64,000 bases of DNA from Mobula birostris. Lineage: Eukaryota. The DNA lies in the NCBI RefSeq assembly GCF_030028105.1, contig NC_092380.1, positions 82,581,717 to 82,645,716 on the forward strand, read 5' to 3'. The notes under the pieces were generated by a model that was not told the origin of the DNA, searched no databases, and was given only the letters and a program-made list of their open reading frames with translations. This document shows, in pieces, positions 8,905 through 63,766 of the stretch (its first letter is position 1; every line of letters begins with the position of its first letter). The position numbers and the translations under genes are program-made.

Positions 8905-10170
8905 TGTAGGGTTCTCAGTAATATTAACTGTAATGTTAACTGTTAAGGCTAACAAAATGGCTTCTCTGTAGTGTTGCATGAAATGGTTTCTCTGTAATGT
9001 TAACTGATGAGGTAATGTTTCTCTGTAGCTGCGATGTTTGGGTTAAAGTTACAGATAACAGGGAACTAACAAATGATGACCTGTTATGCTATCTTGTATG
9101 GTGGGAACCGGGAGAAGGAGTTCGCGGGCTTTTCGATGAGGCAAGCAAAGAGAAAGGGAGAGTGCGGGAGCTGCTGGTGTTTCCTGGACAGCGGATACTG
9201 GAATTCGACGGTTCGGATGCTGTCAGAGGTTCGGAGGTCGATTGTGGACTGATCGGGAAGGCGTGAGCTCCAACGAATTATATTTTGTGCACAAGACTGA
9301 TAAACGTACTGAGTGGCGCCTTTGCGTTACTTGTTTCTACTAACCACACCACCTAAAAGAGTTATGAAGTGTAATTATTTAATTGTAAATTATGTACTGT
9401 CTGATATTTTACGTTGTGGGTTTGTACCAGGATGCATTATACAGCATCTACGCAAACGTAGACACAGTTTGGCGGGCAGACGGCAGTTTCCCCTAGATGA
9501 ATGGGAGCTGTGTGTAACATTTGTGGGTGCTCGTCCAGCGATTCAATTCTCTGGATGCTGTGTGATCACTCTGTTTAAAGTACAGTTGTGATGGCGACAG
9601 CTGCGTTTTGGTATGCGGCTGTGGGGGTGCAAGTGAGCAATGCGTGCGTGTTGAGGGGGGTGGAGACTAATATATTAGATGAAGTATTAGTTCAAGGTTT
9701 GAGTATGGTTGAGCTGTTGGCAAAGTGGAAATTGTATCGCGAAACTTTGATTTTGAGACGAGCACAGGCTTAGTGCTAGTGCAGACAAGCGAGGACATAC
9801 AAGGGGCGGGGTTGCCAGAGGTGATTGGCGTCCCAGGGGAGGCGGGACCATGGCGTCTGCAAATTGTTGGGGACGGAGGGGCCGGAGCGGCCGGAGCTCA
9901 GCGAGGAGCTCAGGATGAGGGAGATTTTGGGGTACGAGTTCTCTCGGTACTGAGGGATGAAGGGAAAGAGTGGTCAGATTTGGAAAATTTGGTTAGTTCC
10001 CGTCCCCTAGCGAAAGGCAAGGGTTCCAAGTTGGCATCTGCCATTCCCTCCCTGGCGAGAAAGGCAGAGGAGCCCCACCAGAAGATAAGAATTTTCTCTG
10101 GGATAACACCTAGCCCCGAAGGTGAGGAGGATTATGAGACATGGGTAGAGCAAACGTTGCTGCTCTTTGT
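8905..10170 (+). mobile_element. Gypsy/Ty3 LTR retrotransposon remnant (probable 5' LTR plus truncated PNMA-like gag)
   Basis: TG(8905)...CA(9464)-bounded segment, then a PBS-like tggcgggcag at 9470. Frameshifted gag follows, ending in KIRIFSGITPSPEGEEDYETWVEQ, the PNMA-domain signature (LRIFSG...EE.FE.W.EQ). Confidence 0.7.
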
Positions 10171-10677
10171 TACATATACAAAGTCTAATTAATACCTTTG
10201 GATCACATTATCTTACATAATAACTTAAAAAACCCCTTGTTAACATTGTCACTAAGTCCCAAGTAAGATATGAATCATGCATTTGTTTTAGAATTTTTTG
10301 TTTGCCATTTTGAGGAATATCAGAAATCCCTAGAGCTGATCTGAAAGGTAGGGGATAAGGCTAAGCTGGCTGTCAAGGGACACCTTGGTGAGAGGGGTTG
10401 CTTGAATGTACCACTGTAAGCTGTGCTACTGTAGACCATGCCAGTGGAGCACAGGGCACTTTGTATGTCTTGTGGCTGGATGTGGGGCTGTCATGGGTAG
10501 TGGTTGCAAGTGGTCACCTAAAGTCAGAATGATTTGGCAATTAGTCTTCAGAGCAAAGCACAAATAAACATTTAAGTGTGATCCAACATTGAATTTGTGG
10601 GAAGAATTTTATAATAACTAGAAAATAAAGTATATACTGTAGGTAAGCAAATTTCTTATTTCTGCTTTCTTCTGAAG

Positions 10678-10870
10678 GTTTGCAAAGTGAGTACCTCTAG
10701 GAAATTATTCATGATCTTCTGTCTCCCAAGGAAAGCAGCAGCATTTTGGTATGTGAAGATGGAAAAAAAGGAATATTCCAAGTTGTGAATTCTGATTCTC
10801 TGGCCAAGCCCTGGGGTCAAAGGAAAAAGAATGAGCGCCTGCCCCATGAAAAACTCAGCAGAGCATTGAG
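10678..10870 (+). pseudogene. ELF5: ELF5-like ETS-domain exon with premature stop
   Basis: Acceptor tttcttctgaag|, donor GAG|gtaaca. Translation [64 protein letters not shown] aligns to ELF5 [69 protein letters not shown] at 10698-10700 replaces the invariant Trp. Confidence 0.9.
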
Positions 10871-10885
10871 GTAACATTGTGCATC

Positions 10886-11135
10886 AGAGTACCAGCTACG
10901 TAGGTTCAATTCCTGCTGCTGTTTGTAAGGGGTTTGTACGTTCTCCCCATGACCTCGCGGGTTTTCTCCGGGTGCTCCGGTTTCCTCCCACATTCCAAAG
11001 ACGTTGGTAGGTTAACTTGTCATTATAAATTGTCCCATGATTAGGCTAGGATTAAACTGGGTGATTGCTGGGTGTCGTGGGTCAAAGGGTCTGAAGGGTC
11101 TACTCTGTGTCGTAGATCAATAAAAAAAAATTTAA
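10886..11135 (+). mobile_element. V-SINE/HE1-like SINE
   Basis: Core gggttttctccgggtgctccggtttcctcccacattccaaagac with an A-tail; related copies near 20870-21075, 50870-51070 and 52210-52380. Confidence 0.75.
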
Positions 11136-11138
11136 ATC

Positions 11139-12428
11139 TGACATTGAGATAACATCGAGGTAACATTGTGCATCTGTCATTGAGGTAACAATGTGAATCT
11201 GTCATTGAAGTAACAGTGTGTTTGTCATTGAGGTAACATGCATCTGTCATTGAGGTAACAGTGTGCGTCTGTCATTGAGGTAACAGTGTGCGTCTGTCAT
11301 TGAGGTAATGTTGTGTGTCTGACATTGAGGTAACAGTGTGCACCTGACATTGAGGTAACGTGCGTCTGTTGTTGAGGTAACAGTGTGCATCTCATATTGA
11401 GGTAACAGTGTGCGTCTGTCATTGAGGTAACAGTGTGTGTCTGTCGTTGAGGTAACTGTACGTCTGTCATTGAGGTAACAGTGTGCGTCTGTCATTGAGG
11501 TAATGTGTGTCTGACATTGAGGTAACAGTGTGCACCTGACATTGAGGTAACGTGCGTCTGTTGTTGAGGTAACAGTGTGCATCTCATATTGAGGTAACAG
11601 TGTGCGTCTGACATTGAGGTAACAGTGTGTGTCTGTCGTTGAGGTAACTGTGCGTCTGACATTGAGGTAACAGTGTGTGTCTGTCATTGAGATAACAGTG
11701 TGCATCTCATATTGAGGTACCATTGAGCATCTGTCATTGAGGTAACGTTGTGTTTCTGATATTGAGGTAACATTGTACTTCTGACATTGAGGTAACAGTG
11801 TGCATCTGACATTGAGGTAACAGTGTGCATCTGACATTGAGGTAACAGTGTGCATCTGACATTGAGGTAACTGTGTGTCTGTCACTGAGGTAACATTGTG
11901 CGTCTGACAATGAGGTAACATTGAGTGTCTGACATTGAGATAACAGTGTGCATCTCATATTGAGGTACCATTGAGCATCTGTCATTGAGATAACGTTGTG
12001 TTTCTGACATTGAGGTAACATTGTGCTTCTGTCGTTGAGGTAACAATGTGAATCTGTCATTGAAATAACAGTGTGTCTGTCATTGAGGTAACGTGCATCT
12101 GACATTGAGGTAACAGTGTGCAACTGACATTGAGGTAACGTTGTGCGTCTGTTGTTGAGGTAACTGTGCATCTCATATTGAGGTAACATTGAGCGTCTGT
12201 CGTTGAGGTAACGTGTTTCTGACATTGAGGTAACAGTGTGCGTCTGACATTGACGTAACAGTGTGTGTCTGTCGTTGAGGTAACTGTGCGTCTGACATTG
12301 AGGTAACAGTGTGTGTCTGTCATTGAGGTAACATTGTGCGTCTGTCGTTGAGGTAACAATGTGAATCTGACATTGAAGTAACAGTGCATCTGTCATTGAG
12401 GTAACGTTGTGTGTCTGACATTGAAGTA
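11139..12428. repeat. Minisatellite, ~25-bp unit CATTGAGGTAACAGTGTGCGTCTGT, about 54 units
   Basis: Directly visible tandem array; units hand-counted. The long Cys/Thr-rich minus-strand ORFs here are repeat artefacts. Confidence 0.98.
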
Positions 12429-13039
12429 TGTTAAAAGGAGAGCATTAAGCTTCCCTTAATCTATTCATTGATGTAGTAAAATGTGAACAGAGTCAATTAA
12501 ACATCAGCTATGTTTTTGAGCCAGAAACAACTTACCTCATGAGTAAATATACACAGTAAACAATTATATATGTGTTTGGCATTATGGGAATAGTTTGACT
12601 TCCAGAATAATTCCAGATTGGCATGAAAGTTTCTGTGAATCATGTTGGTAGACACCTGGTATATAATAATGGTGAAAAGATTCTGTGAAATGGTTGCCTG
12701 TGGAAAACAGATGGTGTAGTGTTTGAACAGGGGAATTGAAAGAAAAAAATTCTCAAGTATAGTTAATGATGGGCAGTGGATATGTAAGTAAAAACAACAG
12801 TGCCATAGATGTTGTGCAAACCCATGTTTCATGTGTTAATTGAGTTCTTGCTGCAATTCCTTTGCAGTTATGGAGCACCCAGGAACCTCATATTAATTAA
12901 TGTCAATTAATTAACTTCAGGTTTATGTGTGCTTCATAACTGCAACTGGTAGGTTATCAACGTCAATAACACTTGATTTTCATGTTTAGCAGAGGGATCT
13001 AATTATTCAGAGGTTACTTCATTTTATTTTGCTTTTCAG

Positions 13040-13124
13040 GCATTATTTGAAAACAGGGATTCTGGAATGGGTGGATAAAAGATGAGTGTATAAATTTGGA
13101 AAGAATGCATATAGCTGGAGATAA
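13040..13124 (+). pseudogene. ELF5: ELF5-like terminal coding exon with premature stop
   Basis: Acceptor ttttgcttttcag|g completes the split Arg codon (AG|G). Translation [26 protein letters not shown] matches ELF5 [26 protein letters not shown]. TGA at 13083-13085; natural-position TAA at 13122-13124. Confidence 0.9.
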
Positions 13125-15239
13125 AAACTTTCATTCACTCATCAATTAAAATCCTATTGATTGAAAATAGGAATCATTCTACAATACACCAGTAAATTCT
13201 TCAGACCCGGGAATATCTTTGGTCAATAATCAATATAATTTAACAATATAATCAGAGTCCTATTAAATATCAAACCACTGTATTAAATGTATTTTTAAAA
13301 ATTATACAACAAGTCTGTAGCAAGTAATTCAATTGCATTGCTTTTGTTGTAAATAACTTTGTAACTGCTCTGTGGAGCCAATGCACAAGTGATCAAAATC
13401 CATGATCTACATCAACCTCTAGCTATCATTTGTTTGTGTGTATAGATTTCCAGCTATTTATCTCTATTACATTGACCTACATAGAGCACAGTGCAGAAAT
13501 AAGCAAGTTATTTGTCCCTCTTCCTATCCTTCCTCACCCATCAGTTTACTCCTCGAGTCTTTTCTTAACTGTACGCTTGTTTAATTTTTTCTACTTTCAT
13601 GTTCACTTGGCTGTGAATTCCATGTTTTCACCACACCATGTTTTCTTCTGACTTTCCTCTCTCAATGGCCTCTGTCTTTTTTCTTTTTCTCCCAGAGATG
13701 CTTTCTCTTTACTTTCTTTAACAATTCGATGATCATAATTCAACTCTACCCAAATCTTTCTGATTTAAAGACATACATCAATATCATCTGACAACATTAT
13801 GTACACAGTGTAATTATATAGAGTAGCATTTTATTTGTTTTACTGAGGGAATTTGCCTAGCATTTTATAGGAATGTGCAAACTATTTTCTAACGATGGCT
13901 GAAAATTACTGTTGATGATGTTGCTATTTTACCAAGTCATTTTATGCGGTGAGTGCTTCTGCTAAGGTACTGCAATGACGAAAGTTATAACAACGTCTGC
14001 TGCACCAGGCCACTGAAATAATAAACCACCAGTTTCAGTCTGTTATTTTCTTTTTTTTTGTATCTGTTTCTTCTTGCAATGTTCAAATTATATATGGAAA
14101 CACTGAACTTAGATATGGACACTGAAAGTACAACATGCCAGGAACAAAGAGCTTCCACTATGAGTGTAACAAAGCTCAATACATTGCTTACATTTGTAAC
14201 TATACTGTGGAAATTGTGATAATAAAATAAATTTTCTCACATAATTCAAATGATCAGTTTTGCTATGATAGATTTTCTTCATTTGATATATTAATAATTA
14301 TAATTATAAATTAGGTACATTGAAGCTGAAAATACACAGACTGAGGAGAACCAGCCAAATGTGGTTGAGTTAGTGGGGTCAGTGTATCTGAAAACATAAT
14401 TGAAATAGATATTTCAGCCAACATTTCATTTTCTATCATTGAAAGAGAAATCCGATCTATATCTTACCACCATTCTTTCAACTGGAGCTTTAAATCATTT
14501 TATATATTTTTTAGTGGTAAATTATTGATTGATTTCAGTGTTATTAATTGAGATGGCATCTACGTGTCTCAGCCTTTGTTGGGCCAAGTTCTTCCTGACT
14601 TCTTTGGGCAAAGTGTCTCTTGATTTCTTCCTAAAGAAATTTTGAATTCCTTTTAGCTCCTCAGAAGAGAAATGTGTTGTTTACATACGATCTTAAGCTC
14701 TAACCTTGCTGTCCTTCGCCCCTCTTTAGAATCATCAATATCCTAAAAAACATCCTGAACCATGTGCATGTGAGCGAATTGAAACAAAATTTAGAAACGT
14801 TCTCCTCAGAAGCTTGCCTTGTCTAACATACAGGAAGATTAGAGTGACTTAGTCTGGGAGGTAACTGAGGAAAGTAGTCTAGGTAACCCTGCATGAGAGT
14901 GAAGGGAATTTACTGAGTGCGACCAGAAGTGTCCCACTTTGAGTGAAGCAACTGACCCTGTATTACTGGTTCAACTCCCCACTGGTGTCACAAAGCCAGG
15001 CAACTTTCAAAAATCTCCTTAAATTGTGTCGCTGGACATTGCATTTATAGACAACAATTTTTAACGTTCTTTTGCTTCAGGCATGGAGCCCATTGCAGAT
15101 TCTTGATGGAGACACTATTTGACTGACTGAAGATATAATAAACATCGCTGCGGATCCAAAATAAGCGGCCATTAATTGCCTAAAGCAAGAGAATACCTCA
15201 CGTGGAGGGTCTCCCCCTGACACTCCCATGCTATTACTC

Positions 15240-16530
15240 TTGGAATCACTTTGAATCAGGTTTGATATCACTGGCACATGTCGTGAAATTTGCTGTTTTG
15301 TGGCAGCTGTACAGTGCACTACATAATAATAACAATAAAAACTATAAATTACAATAAATAACAATAATAAAATTAAACAAGCAGTGAAAAAGAGAGGAAA
15401 AATACAGAGGTAGTTTTCATAGTGTTCTCCACATACCAACTGCTATCGTCCCAATCTTCACCTCCCCCAGCTTGCACCTTTCACCAGCTCCCCAGTCACC
15501 ATGGACTCACCTTCACTACTGGGCAGGTGAGAAGGGTTCTCGGGAAACTCAGACACGGCAAAGCACTGGGATTGGAGGGTGAGAACCCCAAGGTCCTGAA
15601 GGAGTGTGCTGAGCAGCTGTGTGGAGTTCTCCAGAGCATTTTCAGTCTGAGTCTCAGCCTGGAAAGGGTCCCGACCAGGTGGAAAACACGTGTGGTCAAA
15701 GTACCCAAGAAGGGCCAACCAAAAGTCTTGAATGACTACCGTCCAGTGACCCTGACCCTGATCACACATTGTGAAGACCTGAGAGAGGCTGGTCCTGGCT
15801 TACCTCTGACCCCTGGTCAGGTCAGCCCTCCATCCCCTGCAGTTTGTCTACCAGGAGCACACTGGAGTTGAATTGGAGAACTCAGGGAAAGAAAGCAAGT
15901 TGTTTTGTTTATGTCTCCCCTCTTGCTGTGAAAGGGTGACACCTCTCTGTCCCTTTATTAGGGAGAGAGGGAGAGCCTGTGGCATGTTGAATTGTTGGAT
16001 GAATGATTAGTTTTTGTTGTATTGCAGATCACGGTCTTTCTTGGGGACTTTGCTATTGCTTGCTTAGTGGGTGGAGGGTGCTGATTTTTTTTTGTTGAAG
16101 CAAGAGGGGTGGGGAATATCATTGCTTTGCTGCTGCTTGTATGTGGGAGGGAGAGTGGGGGGGTGCTTTAGAGTTCTAATGTTTTCCTGTCACTCATTCT
16201 TTGGGGCACTCTTCTGTTTTCATGGATGTTTGCGAAGAACAAGAATTTTAGGTTATACATTGTATACGTTCTCTGATATTCAATGGAACCATTGAAATTA
16301 TAATTATATCACACCACTTAAATCCTGACCCGGATCTGGGCCGTACCCTCCAAATATCCAGACCTGCATCTCGGTTTTTTTGCACTATCTTACTTTCCAT
16401 TTTTCTATTTTCTATTTATGATTTATAATTCAATTTTTTAATATTTACTATCTATTTGTAATCCAGGGAGCGGGAAGCACAGAATCAAATATCGCTATGA
16501 TGATTGTACGTTCTAGTATCAATTGATGGC
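15240..16530. mobile_element. Cluster of Rex1/Babar-like LINE fragments and 3' ends
   Basis: RT fragment GKALGLEG.NPKVLKECAEQLCGV...PKVLNDYRPVTLT at 15422-15860 (+). The flanking 3'-UTR-type repeats recur at 34690-35060 and 56770-57150. Confidence 0.75.
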
Positions 16531-31259: not shown

Positions 31260-34200
31260 ATGGAAATGGAGGTGCCTATGCAAATTATACCAGAATACTT
31301 CAAGAACTCAGAAGCAAGGCCAGCAATAAATGTCCAAACAGAAGCCAAGATTTCAACAGAAAAGGCTTTTGAGTCACAGGCTGTTCTGCCTGTCTGTGGT
31401 GTGATGTGGCAAATGACTCCTCCTCAGATCAAGCCACAGGGAGCTATGTCTTTAGAAACATTGCCCTTGGACAAGAAGACTTTGGAAGATAAGTCCCTGG
31501 AGAAAACGCCTTTAGATGTCAGCCTCCCCAAAGCCAAGTTCTATGACCATATGCAAATGGAAACAAAATCTTTAGAAGATCACATGTTAAAATTACAAAA
31601 TCTCTGCCGCATGTGTGGAGTTTCCTTTAATACTAACAGTTATGACATGAAGTACCCAGTCAATGGCCCTGTTGATCATGTCACACAAGAGGTTCTTAAG
31701 AAAATGGGGCATGGAAACAGTTTTTGGCCAGAACTCATCCACAAGACATTTAATATAGATGTCACGACAGATTCAGAAGCCAGACATCCCACCCACTTCT
31801 GCCATAGTTGTTGGCGGATTGTCATTCAGACAATCAACAATCCAACTAATGAAGATGCATTCTTTCCCGTAAGCACAATTGTTCAGTGGAAACCACACTC
31901 CAGTTTTTGCAATGTTTGCAACTCTGCAAGTGGAACACGTAAACGCAAAGTTCTCAAACTGAGTGCACCAGGCACCAAGAAGCCTAAAGTAACAGTTGAT
32001 GTGCCTATCAAATCAAGAGTTATTAAAAGAAAAGATAAAATAAATTCAACAAGTATCTTACTGGCTAAAAAGATTGTGAACTGCAAGAAGATGCATCTAA
32101 GTTCAAAAGTCCTTCTGCATGATTATCCCAATAACTTTATTCAGTCAGTGTCATGCCAGGTTTGTGAACATTTATTAGTTGACCCTGTGCAGTCACTGTG
32201 CAAGCATCTCTTCTGCAGAACATGCATCCTCAAATGTACTACAGTACTTGGAAAATTTTGTCCAGTTTGCAGGTTTCCATGTGATCCTGCAGAGTTTAAA
32301 AGTCCAGTGAAATCATTCATAAGTGTTCTCAATTCATTAGTTCTAAAATGTCCTGTGGAAGCCTGTGAAAAAGAAGTAAGATTTGGTGAATATCCCAAAC
32401 ACACCCAGAATCACAAAAAAACAAGAATGTCACAGAGCTATTCACCAATAAACAAAGGTGGCCGGCCTAGGCAACATTTGCTCTCTCTAACTCGCAGGGC
32501 TCAAAAACATCGTCTACGAGATCTCAAACTTCAGGTTAAGGCATTTGCAGAAAAGGAGGAAGGTGGTGATGTGAAGTCAGTATGCCTTACTCTGTTGTTG
32601 CTGGCATTGAGAGCTGGAAATGAGCATAGACGAGCAGATGAACTGGAAGCTCTCATGCAAGGTCATGGATCAGGGCTGAAGCCAGGAGTCTGCCTTGCCA
32701 TTAGGATTAGTACGTTTCTGAGTTGCAGTCAGTATCATAAAATGTATAGGACGGTCAAAGCAGCAACTGGGAAGCAGATATTCCAACCACTGCATGCACT
32801 CCGGAATACAGAGAAAACATTGTTGCCAGGTTATTATTCATTTGAATGGGAGCCTCCTCTTGCAAGTGTCTCCACCAACACTGAAGTGGGAATAATAGAT
32901 GGTACATGTGGCTGGGCACAATGCATTGACGATTACCCATTGGAAACAATTTCGAGAAGATTTAGGTACGATGTGGCGATTGTTTCAGCACTGAAGGATC
33001 TTGAGGATCATATTTTGGAAGGTTTAAAACTCAAAAATATAGATGAGTATGTGGGTGGACCTTTCACTGTAGTAATCAAAGAATCTTGTGATGGAATGGG
33101 AGATGTTAGTGAAAAACATGGATGTGGTCCTTCAGTTCCAGAAAAGGCAGTGAGGTATTCATTTACAATCATGAGTATAAGTGTTGCGAATGAAAATAAT
33201 GAGAAGGTGAAAGTATTTGAAGAGCTGAAGCCAAATTCTGAATTGTGCTGCAAGCCTCTTTGCTTGATGCTGGCAGATGAATCTGACCATGAAACTTTGA
33301 CGGCAATATTGGGTCCACTAATCACAGAAAGGGAAGCAATGAAACACAGTGACTTAATCCTTGAAATTGCAGATATACCTAGATCCTTCCAGATTGTCTT
33401 TAGAGGCACAGGGTATGATGAGAAGCTGGTTCGTGAAGTCGAAGGCCTTGAAGCCTCAGGCTCTACGTACGTGTGTACGTTATGTGATTGCACTCGAAGT
33501 GACGCTTCACAAAATCTGATCTTTCATTCTATAACAAGGAGCCACGAAGAGAACTTAGAGCGCTATGAAATTTGGCGCACAAATCCATATCATGAGACAG
33601 CTGAACAGTTACGCGACAGAGTGAAAGGGGTTTCAGCAAAAGCATTCATTGAAACACTGCCCTCCATAGATGCTTTGCATTGTGATATTGGGAACGCAAC
33701 AGAGTTCTTCAAGCTGTTCCAGGATGAGATTGGGGAGGTGCACAAAAATCCCAATCCACCTAAGGAGGAAAAGAAAAGGTGGCAAGCAATGCTCGATAAA
33801 CATCTAAGAAAAAAGATGAACCTGAAACCGGTCATGAGGATGAATGGAAACTTTGCAAGGAAACTAATGACTAATGAGACTGTGGAAGCAGTTTGTGAAC
33901 TGATTCCCTCCGAAGAAAGACGAGAGATTCTCAGGGAGCTGATGCATCTTTACACTCTTATGAAACCTGTGTGGCGATCCACATTCCCATTCAGAGAGTG
34001 CCCTGAACTTCTTTGTCAATACAGCTTTCATTCCCAGAGATTTGCAGAACTGCTTCATACAGAGTTCAAGTACAGGTACGATGGCAAGATCACCAACTAC
34101 CTTCATAAGACTTTGGCTCATGTCCCTGAGATCATTGAAAGGGATGGCTCTATTGGGGCATGGGCAAGTGAAGGAAATGAATCAGGCAACAAACTCTTTC

Positions 34201-34412
34201 GGCGTTTCAGAAAAATGAATGCAAGGCAGTCTAAGAGCTATGAGTTGGAAGATATTCTGAAGCACCACTGGCTGTATACTTCAAAGTATTTACAGAGGTT
34301 TATGGATGTGAACAATGAATTGCAAAATGAACCAGATCCATTTGTACCAGAAGAATTAATCAGCCAACATGATCCAATAAATTCAATAGATGATGATTCC
34401 CTTTATTTTTAA
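31260..34412 (+). CDS. RAG1: Recombination activating gene 1, 1050 aa, single coding exon
   Basis: CRMC...CHSC zinc region, RING ([24 protein letters not shown]...CPVC), nonamer-binding [21 protein letters not shown], catalytic CDGMGD, GTGYDEK and SEGNESGN. Acceptor tctctattag| at 31246, 13 nt before the ATG. Confidence 0.99.
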
Positions 34413-47335: not shown

Positions 47336-48895
47336 TTAATCAAACAGTCTCTTCAGAAAGCTCTTCTTCATTGGCACCCTTTTCAGTGTTGCCGGTGACT
47401 TCTTACGGGGGGATTTTATTGGCGTTCGCTTTATCTGCTTTGTCTTGAGTGGAGTTTTAATTCCTCTGTCAATATAATGTTCATTGCAAAAGTACTTTAT
47501 GTTCTCCTGAGAAAACTGAATCAGCTGCATTTCTGTGAGATTCATGCACTGAGCGTGTACCCAGTGTCCATCATCACCTGCATTCGAGCAGAAGATCATT
47601 GCAGGTTTATTGAGTTCTGTAGAGTAATAAGGCACCCAGATCTTAATGTTCATATTGCAGTTGGCACTGCATTTAATCCAATAACCTTCTTCATCAGCAT
47701 CATCCGTGTTTTCCACATCATCAGAGGGATCTGCTTCCACATCAAAGCGAAATTCTTCCGAATCTTCAAATGTGCTGTATTCCTCAGGATCAGTAAAGGA
47801 TTCCTGGCTGGCAGACATCTGGCTTTCTTCTTTAGGCTGTCCAAAATTTGCAATGTAGAAGTAGTGTGCAATTGGTGTATCTTGTTTCGTTTCTCCAGGA
47901 ATTCCTATTAACACTGCACTACTTCCCATATCACTGCCAAACCAGGTTTTGCTTGCTTTGATATCATTAGTCCATGCTGGGGGTTCTTTTTCCAAAATCT
48001 GAATGTTATTATTCTCCAGAATGACAGTGTTACAAATCATCCGCTTCTGACTCTCAGATTCATAGCCACCAACAATGATGAACTCATCTGTGCCAGCCTG
48101 GGTCACGATTGCACTTGATACAGAGATACCTCCATGTAGTATTGTACATTTCACACTTGGATGAATGTCTGAAAGATCTACTTTTAGACTAAGCAATCTT
48201 GCAGGACGATTATTGTTTTTAATAGAATGACCACCTAATATGTAGATGGTTTCAAGTTTTGAAATGGCAACATGGAATGAAAAGCCCTCTTCTATTTCTG
48301 GAATTACGTGGGATGTGCAATGGCCGGTATTCATATCAATCAGAAATACCTCAGGTGAACAATCCACCAGGCTATTCCAGTTTTCTGTAGTTCTTTGTCC
48401 AGGAGCCTGGTACGATCTACCACCAAACAGGGCACATATAGTTTCTCCCTTGTCCTGAATCACATTGATGGTGTGGCCATATCTTCCACTGGGAACATCT
48501 CCTGTTAGTTTCTTTTCAGTGCATTGAAGAGACGTTCGCTTTTTGGCAGCATTGTCATAAACCATCATGACATAAAGTGTATTAGGCAGCTCGTTATTTG
48601 GAGTTCTCCCACCATGAATGAGGTAAGAAAGGCTTCCTGCCTCTGAGGGATCTGAGTAATGAGTTACTGCAGGCCGACGCAGTGGTGGGAGATAGCATGA
48701 TTCAGATGAAAATGAAACAGGTTTAAGTTTCAGCTGGTGACTCTTGAGATGAAGAAGGAAAACACCTGTGTTGCAGGATCTTTTAGGCCATCCTTTCTGT
48801 CCAAAAAGAAAGATTTCACTATGAAAATTCATTAAGGAGAATCCTGGGTGTATAAGGTTGGTATTGCTGTTCTCGGAAACCAATTGCAGGGTCAT
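47336..48895 (-). CDS. RAG2: Recombination activating gene 2, 519 aa
   Basis: MTLQLVS...HPGFSLMNF...FGQKGWPKRSC kelch core, acidic hinge (FEDSEEF), PHD (GYWIKC...PAMIFC...GHWVHAQC...YFCNEH) and C-terminal KKSFLKRLFD. A splice acceptor (tttcctttcaaag|) at 48921 puts the track's ATG at 48949 in the intron; the real ATG is 48895. Confidence 0.98.
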   Translation of the reverse strand: MTLQLVSENSNTNLIHPGFSLMNFHSEIFLFGQKGWPKRSCNTGVFLLHLKSHQLKLKPVSFSSESCYLPPLRRPAVTHYSDPSEAGSLSYLIHGGRTPNNELPNTLYVMMVYDNAAKKRTSLQCTEKKLTGDVPSGRYGHTINVIQDKGETICALFGGRSYQAPGQRTTENWNSLVDCSPEVFLIDMNTGHCTSHVIPEIEEGFSFHVAISKLETIYILGGHSIKNNNRPARLLSLKVDLSDIHPSVKCTILHGGISVSSAIVTQAGTDEFIIVGGYESESQKRMICNTVILENNNIQILEKEPPAWTNDIKASKTWFGSDMGSSAVLIGIPGETKQDTPIAHYFYIANFGQPKEESQMSASQESFTDPEEYSTFEDSEEFRFDVEADPSDDVENTDDADEEGYWIKCSANCNMNIKIWVPYYSTELNKPAMIFCSNAGDDGHWVHAQCMNLTEMQLIQFSQENIKYFCNEHYIDRGIKTPLKTKQIKRTPIKSPRKKSPATLKRVPMKKSFLKRLFD

Positions 48896-49289
48896 TGCTG
48901 CAGTAGAAAGCTGGCTGGACCTTTGAAAGGAAACTGAATACAAAATCATGTTAGAAATGAAAAGAAAATAAAGACCGCAATAATGCAGAACTGACCATGT
49001 ACAGACATTGCTATTAATCTATCATTTTTACAATAAGCCAATAATCAGTGCAACTTACTTTAAAACTGAATTATTTTGGGTTCATGATTTATTCATGAAA
49101 ACATTTGCAAAATGACCTTTTAACAAATAGTTATTGTATTCCACATTGTTAAATTCACTTTCCATAAATCTTCGTTCTGCCAACTCCATACCTTTTGAAT
49201 TCTAGCTAATGTTTTTTTTCTCTGTTTTAAAGTGTCATTCTTTTATTGAAACATCACTGGGAAGATATACAGATGATTTTTCAATCTCT

Positions 49290-60330: not shown

Positions 60331-61200
60331 TAAGACCATAAGACAAAGGAGCAGAAGTCGGCCATTCGGCCCATCGAGTCTGCTCCGCCATTTTATCATG
60401 AGCTGATCTATTCCCACATTTAGTCCCACTCCCCTGCCTTCTCACTATAACCTTTTATGCCCTGGCTACTCAGATACCTATCAATCTCTGCCTTAAATAC
60501 ACCCAATGACTTGGTCTCCACCGCTGCCCGTGGCAACAAATTCCATAGATTCGCCACCCTCTGACTAAAAAAATTTCTTCGCATTTCTGTTCTGAATGGG
60601 CACCCTTCAATCCTTAAGTCGTGCCCTCTCGTACTAGACCCCCCCATCATGGGAAACAACTTTGCCACATCCACTCTGTCCATGCCTTTCAACATTCGAA
60701 ATGTTTCTATGAGGTCTCCCCTCACTCTTCTAAACTCCAAGGAATACAGTCCAAGAGCGGACAAACATTCCCCATATGTTAACCCTCTCATTCCCGGAAT
60801 CATTCTAGTGAATCTTCTCTGTACCCTCTCCAACGTCAGCACATCTTTTCTTAAATAAGACCAAAACTGCCCACAGTACTCCAAGTGAGGTCTCACCAGC
60901 GCCTTATAGAGCCTCAACATCACATCCCTGCTCCAATACTCTATTCCTCTAGAAATGAATGCCAACATTGCATTCGCCTTCTTCACTACTGACTCAACCT
61001 GGAGGTTAACCTTAAGGGTATCCTGTCCGAGGACTCCCAAGTCCCGTTGCATCTCAGAACTTTGAATTCTTTCCCCATTTAAATAATAGTCTGCCTGTTT
61101 ATTTCTTCCGCCAAAGTGCATAACCATACACTTTCCAACATTGTATTTCATTTGCCACTTCTTTGCCCATTCTTCCAATCTATCCAAGTCTCTCTGCAGA
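60331..61200 (-). mobile_element. CR1 LINE, 5'-truncated, well preserved
   Basis: 265-aa ORF LQRDLDRLEEWAKKWQMKYNVGKC...RRNFFSQRVANLWNLLP with a (cttatggt)n tail. Confidence 0.93.
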
Positions 61201-63766
61201 GAATAATGAGCCAACACCCAGGTGTGTTAAGCAGGAGGGAAGAAACAGATGATATAATTGATGATCCATTTACATTAGCAGAAATGGTGAGAGCAATAAA
61301 GGGATCGAGACCAACCTCCCCAGGGAAAGATCTGATATGCTCCGTGATGCTAAAAAATCTAGGAGAAGGAGCGCTCTTGAAGTTGCTGCATTTTTATAAC
61401 AGAGTGTGGGAGGAGGGAAGATTACCAAGTGCATGGAAGGAAGCAGTAGTAATTCCAATAAGGAAGCCTGGCAAGGATCTGTCAAAACCCACTAGCTACA
61501 GACCAATTGCATTAACATCAAGTATATGTAAGATAATGGAAAGGATGATAACAGAAAGGTTATCATATGAGCTTGAGAAAAGGGGAATGCTGGCAAGTTA
61601 TCAGAGTGGTTTTAGAAAGGGAAGGAATTCCATGGACTCAGTGATTATGTTAGAGACTGAAATAAGGAAGGCCGAGGCAAATAGAGAGTCAGTAGTGGCA
61701 GTGTTCTTTGACATTGAAAAAACCTATGATATGATGTGGAAGGAAGGATTATTAATTAAACTGCACAAGATGGGGGTTGGTGGGAGAGTTTTTAATTGGA
61801 TTAAAGATTTTTTGCTTGGTAGAAAAATTCAAGTTTGGATTGGATCAGAATTATCAAAACAGTACATAGTGGAAAATGGCACACCTCAAGGTAGTGTGAT
61901 TAGCACGTTACTTTTCATCATTATGATCATTGATGTCTTCACAAAGGTACCAGTGGATATAGGTAGGTCACTGTTTGCGGATGATGGGGCCTTGTGGAAA
62001 AGAGGCAGGAACATGGACCATATAATCAGGAAACTACAAGAAGCAATTGATGAAGTGGTGGAGTGGGGTTATGATTGGGGATGTAGATTTTCAGTAGATA
62101 AAACTCAAACTGTATTTTTTTACCAGGAAAAGGGTTGAGGTAGGGAAGAAGTTAAGGATGTATGGGGTTGAATTAGAAAGGGTTGCATCATTTAAATTTC
62201 TGGGAGTTATATTTGATTCAGGATTAACATGGGCAGACCATATCAGGAAAGTTGAGGAGAAATGTAAAAAAGTATTAAATATGATGAGATGTTTGACTGG
62301 TAGGGAATGGGGAGCAAGTTGTTCAGCTTTGAAGAGAATGTATGTGGCTTTAGTAAGATCTGTATTGGATTATGGAAATATAGTATATGGATCAGCAGCT
62401 AGGTCTCTTATAAGGAAACTGGATGTGATTCAGGCTCAGGCCTTGAGAGTGTGCAGTGGGGCTTTTAAAATGTCACCAGTGTCAGCCCTACAGGTAGAAA
62501 TGGAAATAGTGCCTTTGGAACTAAGAAGGATGCAACTGATGGCAAGCTACTGGGCTAACTTGCAGGGGCACAATGATTCTCACCCTACTAAAGGAGTGTT
62601 GCAGGAGTGCTGGGAAAATGGGAGGTTTCAGAGGGATACCTTTAGTCGGGTAGGGAATGATATCGCGAAAGAATGTGGAGTATTTGATCTGAGGATAAGT
62701 CCTTCAGTAGTTTATCCGGCTGTAGCTCCATGGAAGCTTGTATGGCCTGACATAGACTGGCATTTGTTAGAGGTAAAAAGGAAAGAAAGATATAAAACAG
62801 ATTTGGTAAATGCATTTAACTGTCATGTGATGGAAAAGTATAGTGATTATACTCACATTTATATGGATGGTGCGAAGGAACCTGAAACAGGAGTGACAGG
62901 GTTTGGGGTGGTAATACCAGCAAAAGAAATTGGAATCAGCAGAAGAACATCTAATAAGTTAGGGGTGTTTACAGTGAGGTGCTGGCAGTGTTGGTTGCGT
63001 TGCAATGGGTGCAGAAAGCCAGACAAGCCAAAGCATTGATATGTTCAGATTCATCCTCAGTTCTAGCAAGTTTAAGGTCTTTTCACACAAACAGTCGGCA
63101 AGATGTACTTTATGAAGTCCTTCAGTTAGTTACAAGAATTGCAAATCAGGGAGGTCAGGTAAAATTTCTGTGGGTTCCAGCACATGTAGGGGTGAAGGGG
63201 AATGAGAGGGTGGATGAGTTGGCAAAGAGGGCGTTAAAGAAAGAAAATGTGGAAATGCACATTAGTATCGGTAAAGCAGAGGTTAAGTGTGTAATCTGGG
63301 AAAAAGTCAACCGAATGTGGCAAGAAAGATGGGACAGGGAGGGGAAAGGGAGGCATTTATATCAAGTACAAAAGAGTGTTGCAGTTACTAGGGTAGGTAA
63401 TGGAAACAGAAGAGAGGAAATTGTGTGTACTAGGTTAAGGCTGGGGCATTGTGCATTAAACAAAACATTGAAAATGATAGGGAAACACCAGACAGGATTG
63501 TGTGAGGAATGTCAGGAAGAGGAGTCAGTAGAACATGTAGTTTTGTGTTGCAGGAAGTATGGGATACAGAGAGAGATGATGAGAAATAAATTAAGGGAGT
63601 TGGAGATGCAGGAATTCACATTAAAAGGGTTGCTGGACATGGGTGAGAGAGCACAAGTCCGGGTATTTTTAGCGTTTTTAAGGGGTACAGGGTTTTTTTT
63701 ATAGAATATGACGAATAAACAGGAGTAGGATACTAGGATGGTCAAAGATGGGAGGGTGAAGTGTAG

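Follow-up and report, generated by a model that had tools for sequence, protein, structure and literature searches.

We found that the only ELF5 copy detected in the Mobula birostris assembly is a broken remnant upstream of RAG1, a unitary, intron-containing pseudogene. With high confidence, we read it as an old loss within the myliobatiform rays, in which the PNT exon was likely deleted and a long terminal repeat (LTR) likely kept one surviving exon spliced. The remnant was detected in the window, the whole stretch of 64,000 nucleotides that was analysed (contig NC_092380.1, positions 82,581,717 to 82,645,716), and consists of two exons:

10678..10870, + strand: ELF5 pseudo-exon A, first two-thirds of the ETS domain (acceptor ...TTCTGAAG/GT, donor TTGAG/GTAAC)
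13040..13124, + strand: ELF5 pseudo-exon B, end of the ETS domain (acceptor ...CTTTTCAG/GCAT)

Together, the two exons reconstruct a full ETS frame with canonical splice sites and an Arg codon split as AG/G, as an earlier note on this DNA had described, and an intron of 2.2 kb, bounded by GT and AG and placed where the family has it, separates them. Pfam Ets matched exon A (E = 5e-12), and a profile of 16 ELF5 proteins scored 78 bits on exon A and 38 bits on exon B, with a runner-up of 2.7 bits in 464 kb; the ETS match of the two exons is far beyond chance. The frame is not open, and the Trp core of the domain is destroyed at its first Trp by a stop (TAG, 10698-10700) and at its second by a change to Cys. 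Compared with four cartilaginous-fish orthologues, exon A has also lost one Leu codon and carries 15 more residue changes, and exon B in the assembled sequence carries a TGA (13083-13085) together with Tyr>Leu, Arg>Trp, Arg>Lys and Gly>Ser. The natural stop site of exon B lies at 13122-13124 (TAA), where three of the four orthologues terminate (GWR). Of 86 orthologues whose ETS domain is complete, a motif filter removed 17; of the 55 columns conserved at >=95% in the other 69, the remnant breaks 13, compared with 0-3 in each of the 69. Both stops and the missing codon reported in the earlier note were found in the frame, and two of its substitutions were only partly damage. In YYY>HYL, the Tyr>Leu change is a lesion but the His is not, since all four cartilaginous-fish ELF5s have HYY; in AKMW>AKPW, the Pro is damage but the ancestral residue was not Met, as the ancestral motif is A[KR]LW and the change is Leu>Pro. 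Assembly error as the source of the TAG was ruled out, because position 10699 reads the same in a contig of organism B and in one from run X9 (organism A), and the codon loss recurs in both, in agreement with the view that these are not sequencing errors. A retrocopy was likewise ruled out by the retained intron and the single DNA match per exon.

The assignment to ELF5 was supported by structure, phylogeny and diagnostic residues. The closest solved structure is ELF5 (1wwx, E = 9e-17; ELF3, 2.5e-9; EHF, 3e-8). In an ETS tree of 28 rows that included EHF and ELF3 (20 database proteins chosen from ~125 and eight from this genome), the remnant fell inside the ELF5 clade (100/100) and among the cartilaginous-fish ELF5s (97/98), with a weak sister pairing to Pristis (sawfish; 72/82). 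Forcing it into EHF/ELF3 cost 16 log-likelihood units, which in the AU test was not enough for rejection (p = 0.064), and its terminal branch measured 0.37 versus 0.06-0.12 in four intact cartilaginous-fish ELF5s. The remnant carries SRALR, KTGILE and no Gly after ERVD, as in ELF5, whereas EHF and ELF3 have SRAMR, KREILE and ERVDGRR, the ELF5 form being one residue shorter. Its intron lies within the Arg codon after helix 3, identical in position to those of EHF and ELF3 in this genome, and hence both the choice of ELF5 over EHF or ELF3 and the ESE-family intron position after KLSRAL-R, as first proposed from the sequence, were borne out. The four cartilaginous-fish ELF5s (Callorhinchus, P0001; Heptranchias, P0002; Pristiophorus, P0003; Pristis, P0004) are full-length predicted proteins, and the remnant resembles them in its EYL and HY motifs and its GWR end, with 72% identity to Pristis ELF5 over 89 ETS columns. 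It differs from all four in its two stops, lost codon and lack of a PNT exon, and has 22 residues absent from every one of them, whereas each intact protein has 5-8 private residues. Intact cartilaginous-fish ELF5s (P0001-P0004, P0085 and P0086) are mostly named 'ETS homologous factor' (EHF) in the database, while the tree puts them in ELF5. Database names thus mask orthology here, with intact shark and sawfish ELF5 proteins filed as EHF.

We further searched the assembly (4.0 Gb, 4715 contigs) for other copies, using genome searches that score the best candidates only. The Ets family search gave 46 matches from 66 candidates, with none of ELF5 type among the best 30 of the 46, which were translated; the other 16 are the ELF5 remnant locus and partial matches. 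Callorhinchus and Pristis ELF5 queries returned 41 matches from 56 candidates and 48 from 75, respectively. Among the scored candidates, ESE-class exons occurred only in ELF3 (C4), EHF (C13, 46.2 Mb) and the remnant locus, and the ETS exons of EHF and ELF3, each a gene of its own in this genome, are unbroken. DNA searches with exon A and exon B each recovered the window locus alone, so that both are single-copy. No second ELF5 copy was therefore found among scored candidates of the 4.0-Gb assembly by family, protein or DNA search, which upholds one half of the lineage-specific unitary loss suggested in the earlier note: the loss is unitary, but it is likely not specific to the species, as most exon A lesions predate the split from organism D (see below). 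Separately, the Ets matches include five tandem ETS1/ETV2-like copies ~150 kb apart at C9, 129.6-130.25 Mb (L024-L028), four with altered residues (SRCLR, LDVYQF) and three identical over the translated stretch; this array either expanded recently by segmental duplication or was created in assembly.

The surviving parts of ELF5 are the two ETS exons only. A PNT-family search of the assembly yielded 16 matches from 34 candidates, 11 of them strong and none at the remnant locus, and the strong matches were assigned by their places to other ETS genes. The Pristis ELF5 query does recover the PNT exons of EHF and ELF3 (47% and 32% identity). KBTBD4 lies upstream of exon A, and over the 40.7 kb between them the PNT profile reached at best 0.8 bits (10 shuffles, <=3.0; EHF control, 88.6), and tblastn for PNT did no better than 8 shuffles. 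Nothing resembling 5' exons rose above shuffled controls in the 200 kb upstream, the window, the 100 kb downstream or the 200 kb upstream of EHF, and 264 kb of this sequence contain 0 N. The 5' exons were likely deleted rather than decayed. A split of ELF5 by rearrangement, with its PNT half near EHF, was rejected, as the 200 kb upstream of EHF hold no trace of it.

Downstream of the remnant, the window contains both RAG genes:

31188/31260..34412, + strand: RAG1, intact neighbouring gene with a single coding exon
47336-49018, - strand: RAG2, intact, single coding exon, convergent with RAG1

The RAG1 start is 18,136 bases past exon B, matching the ~18 kb given earlier, and the RAG1 protein is 98.6% identical to that of Mobula hypostoma and 95% identical to those of Hemitrygon and Hypanus, in keeping with a myliobatiform host of the manta/devil type (Mobula). 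ELF5 adjoins EHF in tetrapods. In this genome EHF is 36 Mb from the remnant, and catalase (C13, 49.4 Mb) and a link-domain gene (C13, 47.3 Mb) are both near EHF, 33-36 Mb from the remnant. Accession numbering is taken to follow gene order. Elephant-shark ELF5 (XP_007885831) is four numbers away from the 'shark RAG2' (XP_007885835) named in a preprint (bioRxiv 10.1101/100735), which, if numbering does reflect gene order, suggests that ELF5 beside the RAG genes is the old arrangement and the RAG-side position ancestral. Other elements of the neighbourhood are a prestin-like SLC26 gene ~95 kb upstream (C13:82494994-82497366, L055:3278-5650), with one 791-codon open frame and apparently no introns, also seen in three related rays; a gene 120 kb upstream that we provisionally take to be ABTB2-like; and a LINE-like reverse transcriptase/RNase H element (61083-63704) in three frameshifted pieces, classed from its translation. 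APIP was discarded as a synteny marker, with just six matches, all on other contigs.

These results also bear on whether the remnant might be a partial ELF5 copy that died here while a working ELF5 persists elsewhere, absent from the assembly or overlooked by the searches. Such a partial copy could consist of 3' exons alone, as observed, and the distant EHF has a satellite array of >120 kb (C13:45990001-46117000) ~75 kb upstream of its PNT exon, the place of ELF5 in tetrapods, as well as 200 N in the 200-kb stretch upstream of it. We nevertheless regard a dead duplicate as most improbable, since family, protein and DNA searches recovered no second ETS or PNT exon, the 200 kb upstream of EHF yielded nothing, the elephant-shark accession order suggests that the RAG-side position is ancestral, and no ELF5 protein is listed for three annotated relatives.

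To place the lesions in order, relatives were compared on 10200-10900 in four of 24 runs, representing organisms A (run X9), B, D and E. Organism B, a close relative, differs by 14 changes in ~700 bases, with a single contig spanning the whole stretch; it keeps the TAG, has Glu at the Val of the window and shows its own Asn>Lys. The more distant organisms D and E have 26 and 36 changes, respectively, and their site readings come from the difference rows listed, beyond which there are 15 further rows, mostly of organism E. Both read TGG at the stop site, Arg for the Gly of the window, Leu for its Pro and Glu for its Val. Their gap counts (27 = 2 + 25 in D; 26 = 1 + 25 in E) allow no restored codon, so D and E share the codon loss, and their sole T>G changes are intronic, so both retain Trp>Cys. 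With one unseen A>G left in its tally, organism D also retains Phe>Ile, Met>Leu, Thr>Pro and Tyr>His. The exon A stop is therefore late, and of the 17 lesions in exon A, 12-13 are shared with organism D and predate the D/E split. As D and E have TGG at the stop site but already show Trp>Cys and the missing codon, the gene likely ceased to function long before the TAG arose, and the loss is probably order-wide rather than confined to Mobula birostris.

Since the D/E split, the window lineage has changed at 4 of 150 amino-acid-changing sites (2.7%) versus 10 of 441 intron sites (2.3%; Fisher p = 0.76), a neutral-like pattern on the branch that the earlier note had singled out for a rate check, although the counts are small. 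A dN/dS-like ratio of 0.2 was rejected on this lineage (p = 0.005), as was 0.1 (p = 0.0004). Across exon A of organisms A, B and D, we counted 5 synonymous versus 5 amino-acid-changing differences, a synonymous excess over neutrality (p = 0.036). Organism D has two private synonymous changes and 0 (at most 1) private amino-acid changes versus 1.7 expected (p = 0.18), and some constraint may be left over in this organism. Such observations are relevant to the possibility that most rays kept a working, though rapidly evolving, ELF5 and that it died only on the Mobula side (A, B), through stops and the loss of the PNT exon, an account that partly overlaps the old-loss reading. It fits the intact splice sites, the TGG, Arg and Leu of D and E at sites damaged in the window, and the two private synonymous changes of D without a listed private amino-acid change. 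We consider it improbable, however, because D and E already lack the helix 1 codon and carry Trp>Cys, D also has Phe>Ile, Met>Leu, Thr>Pro and Tyr>His, with most of these columns conserved at >=95% in 69 orthologues, and the annotations of three relatives list no such protein.

The old-loss reading was next compared with a rough clock, in which a neutral change of 7-11% reaches back three to five times as far as the D/E split; this points to a loss on the myliobatiform stem. Consistent with a stem loss, Hypanus, Hemitrygon and Mobula were without an ELF5-type protein among 84 matches plus the best 120 of 214, a result at the level of annotations, not genomes, and RAG1 proteins of all three are present in the same protein collection. 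Galeomorph sharks, skates and teleosts likewise contributed no ELF5-type protein to the same match listings, and the only ray-finned fish with one among the matches listed were Polypterus and Erpetoichthys. Repeated ELF5 loss across fish groups is possible.

The sequence around exon A contains further features that relate to its transcription:

8930..10160, + strand: Ty3/Gypsy-like retrotransposon fragment, high-copy, in sense orientation (donor 10121/GTGAGG)
10890..11130 (ends approximate), + strand: SINE-like insert with A-tail, between the exon A donor and the minisatellite
11152..12428, + strand: minisatellite of 52 copies of a 25-nt unit that reproduces the junction at the exon A splice donor (41 GAGGTAAC copies)
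15081..15252 (3' end provisional), + strand: cryptic downstream exon, unique sequence (acceptor ...TTTTGCTTCAG/GCATGG)

The retrotransposon fragment comprises a likely LTR ending ...TGTAACA at 9519, followed by a stretch resembling a primer-binding site, and a truncated PNMA-like gag (atlas lead score 0.84; no Pfam match) with its frame broken near 9710. Copies of the element amounted to 2626 candidates, of which the best 40 were scored (77-85% identity). When four copies are compared, the branch leading to this one measures 7-8%, about the level of decay, so that the insertion and the ELF5 loss appear roughly coeval. The insert at 10890..11130, which we take to be SINE-like, also has its start in organisms B and D, and organisms D and E have an extra minisatellite unit directly behind the exon A donor.

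Run X9 contributed three contigs, one intronic and two that cease to follow the window at the exon A borders and continue as loose ends. The loose ends are exact matches to 10088-10117 and 15082-15111 (0 of 100 shuffles), and the joints run from the donor CCGAAG/GTGAGG (10121) to 10678 and from 10870 to the acceptor TTTTGCTTCAG/GCATGG (15081), all with GT-AG borders. The 10870^13040 junction that had been proposed was not the one seen: exon B is skipped in the one contig with a downstream joint, which runs from 10870 to 15081. The joined forms 10121^10678 and 10870^15081 have no copy in the assembly and, with both joints on GT-AG borders, are best read as splicing. These joints come from one run labelled 'RNA? 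(probably DNA)', at depth 4-7 and on separate contigs, and none of the 24 runs is recorded as RNA; the locus appears to be transcribed and spliced. A contig of X9 extends at least 224 letters before the 10121 joint. An origin of the cryptic acceptor by duplication of the exon B acceptor was dismissed, with a 20-nt match only (E = 0.15). Near the cryptic exon, AATAAA occurs at 15137, 15334, 15353 and 15366. Splicing from the gag donor keeps the reading frame of the ETS exon, but the TAG comes up within seven codons and the gag frame is already interrupted further upstream, so the product here is likely an LTR-driven non-coding RNA.

Selection on such a product would offer another explanation, again overlapping in part with the old-loss reading: an LTR-driven RNA toward RAG1, or a Gag-ETS fusion in relatives free of the TAG, would have been co-opted. 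The canonical joints in X9, the in-frame gag donor, splice sites that outlasted roughly 7-11% neutral change, and the position of the RNA on the RAG1 strand, 16 kb upstream of that gene, would all suit this idea. Yet in-frame joining has a one-in-three chance, the TAG and the broken gag frame interrupt any fusion here, exon A changes at intron speed (5.2% vs. 6.1%), several AATAAA motifs follow the cryptic exon, and the joints come from one run only. Co-option is accordingly judged very unlikely. A bolder version, in which a retrotransposon took over the 5' end so that ELF5 was replaced by a Gag-ETS fusion in the TGG rays and by a selected non-coding RNA into the RAG1 locus in Mobula, strikes us as equally hard to credit; if it were true, a ray order would feed its young uterine milk without the mammalian milk-gland regulator.

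Under the old-loss reading, ELF5 would have lost its function in a myliobatiform ancestor and its 5' exons with PNT, likely by deletion, and the ETS exons would have decayed neutrally after the loss of function; the insertion, the 5' deletion and the relaxation of selection may have come in any order. The sense LTR element would drive low-level transcription using the exon A splice sites. The remnant would yield no transcription factor protein, and EHF and ELF3 may cover the epithelial roles of ELF5. LTR-promoted chimeric transcripts and transcribed pseudogenes are of a known kind, and the remnant resembles them in its upstream sense LTR, its donor within gag and the joining of a host exon. 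It departs from usual LTR chimeras in that the host exon comes from a dead transcription-factor gene beside RAG1 and the transcript start is putative. The type of event, a unitary pseudogene with an LTR-linked residual transcript, is thus ordinary, and the interest lies in the gene.

Loss of an ETS factor from a whole lineage has a parallel in ETV2, which is reported to be deleted in birds (PMC10992995). Bird ETV2 and ray ELF5 are both conserved ETS regulators that are essential in mammals and have no working gene in another vertebrate lineage; ray ELF5 differs in leaving a recognisable remnant with a readable order of lesions and one exon still spliced. No report of ELF5 loss in rays was found in the openly accessible literature covered, and an ELF5 pseudogene in rays is apparently unreported.

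In the mouse, ELF5 is essential for the placenta and for stem cells of the trophoblast (PMC9166831); in the mammary gland it supports the differentiation of alveoli (PMC8998991), and myliobatiform rays feed their embryos lipid uterine milk (PMC10015161). The remnant makes the order of lesions readable across living rays. If the loss is order-wide, the secretory tissue for uterine milk would have evolved, and would work, without ELF5, and these rays would test directly whether the regulator used by mammals is recruited again when maternal feeding evolves convergently.
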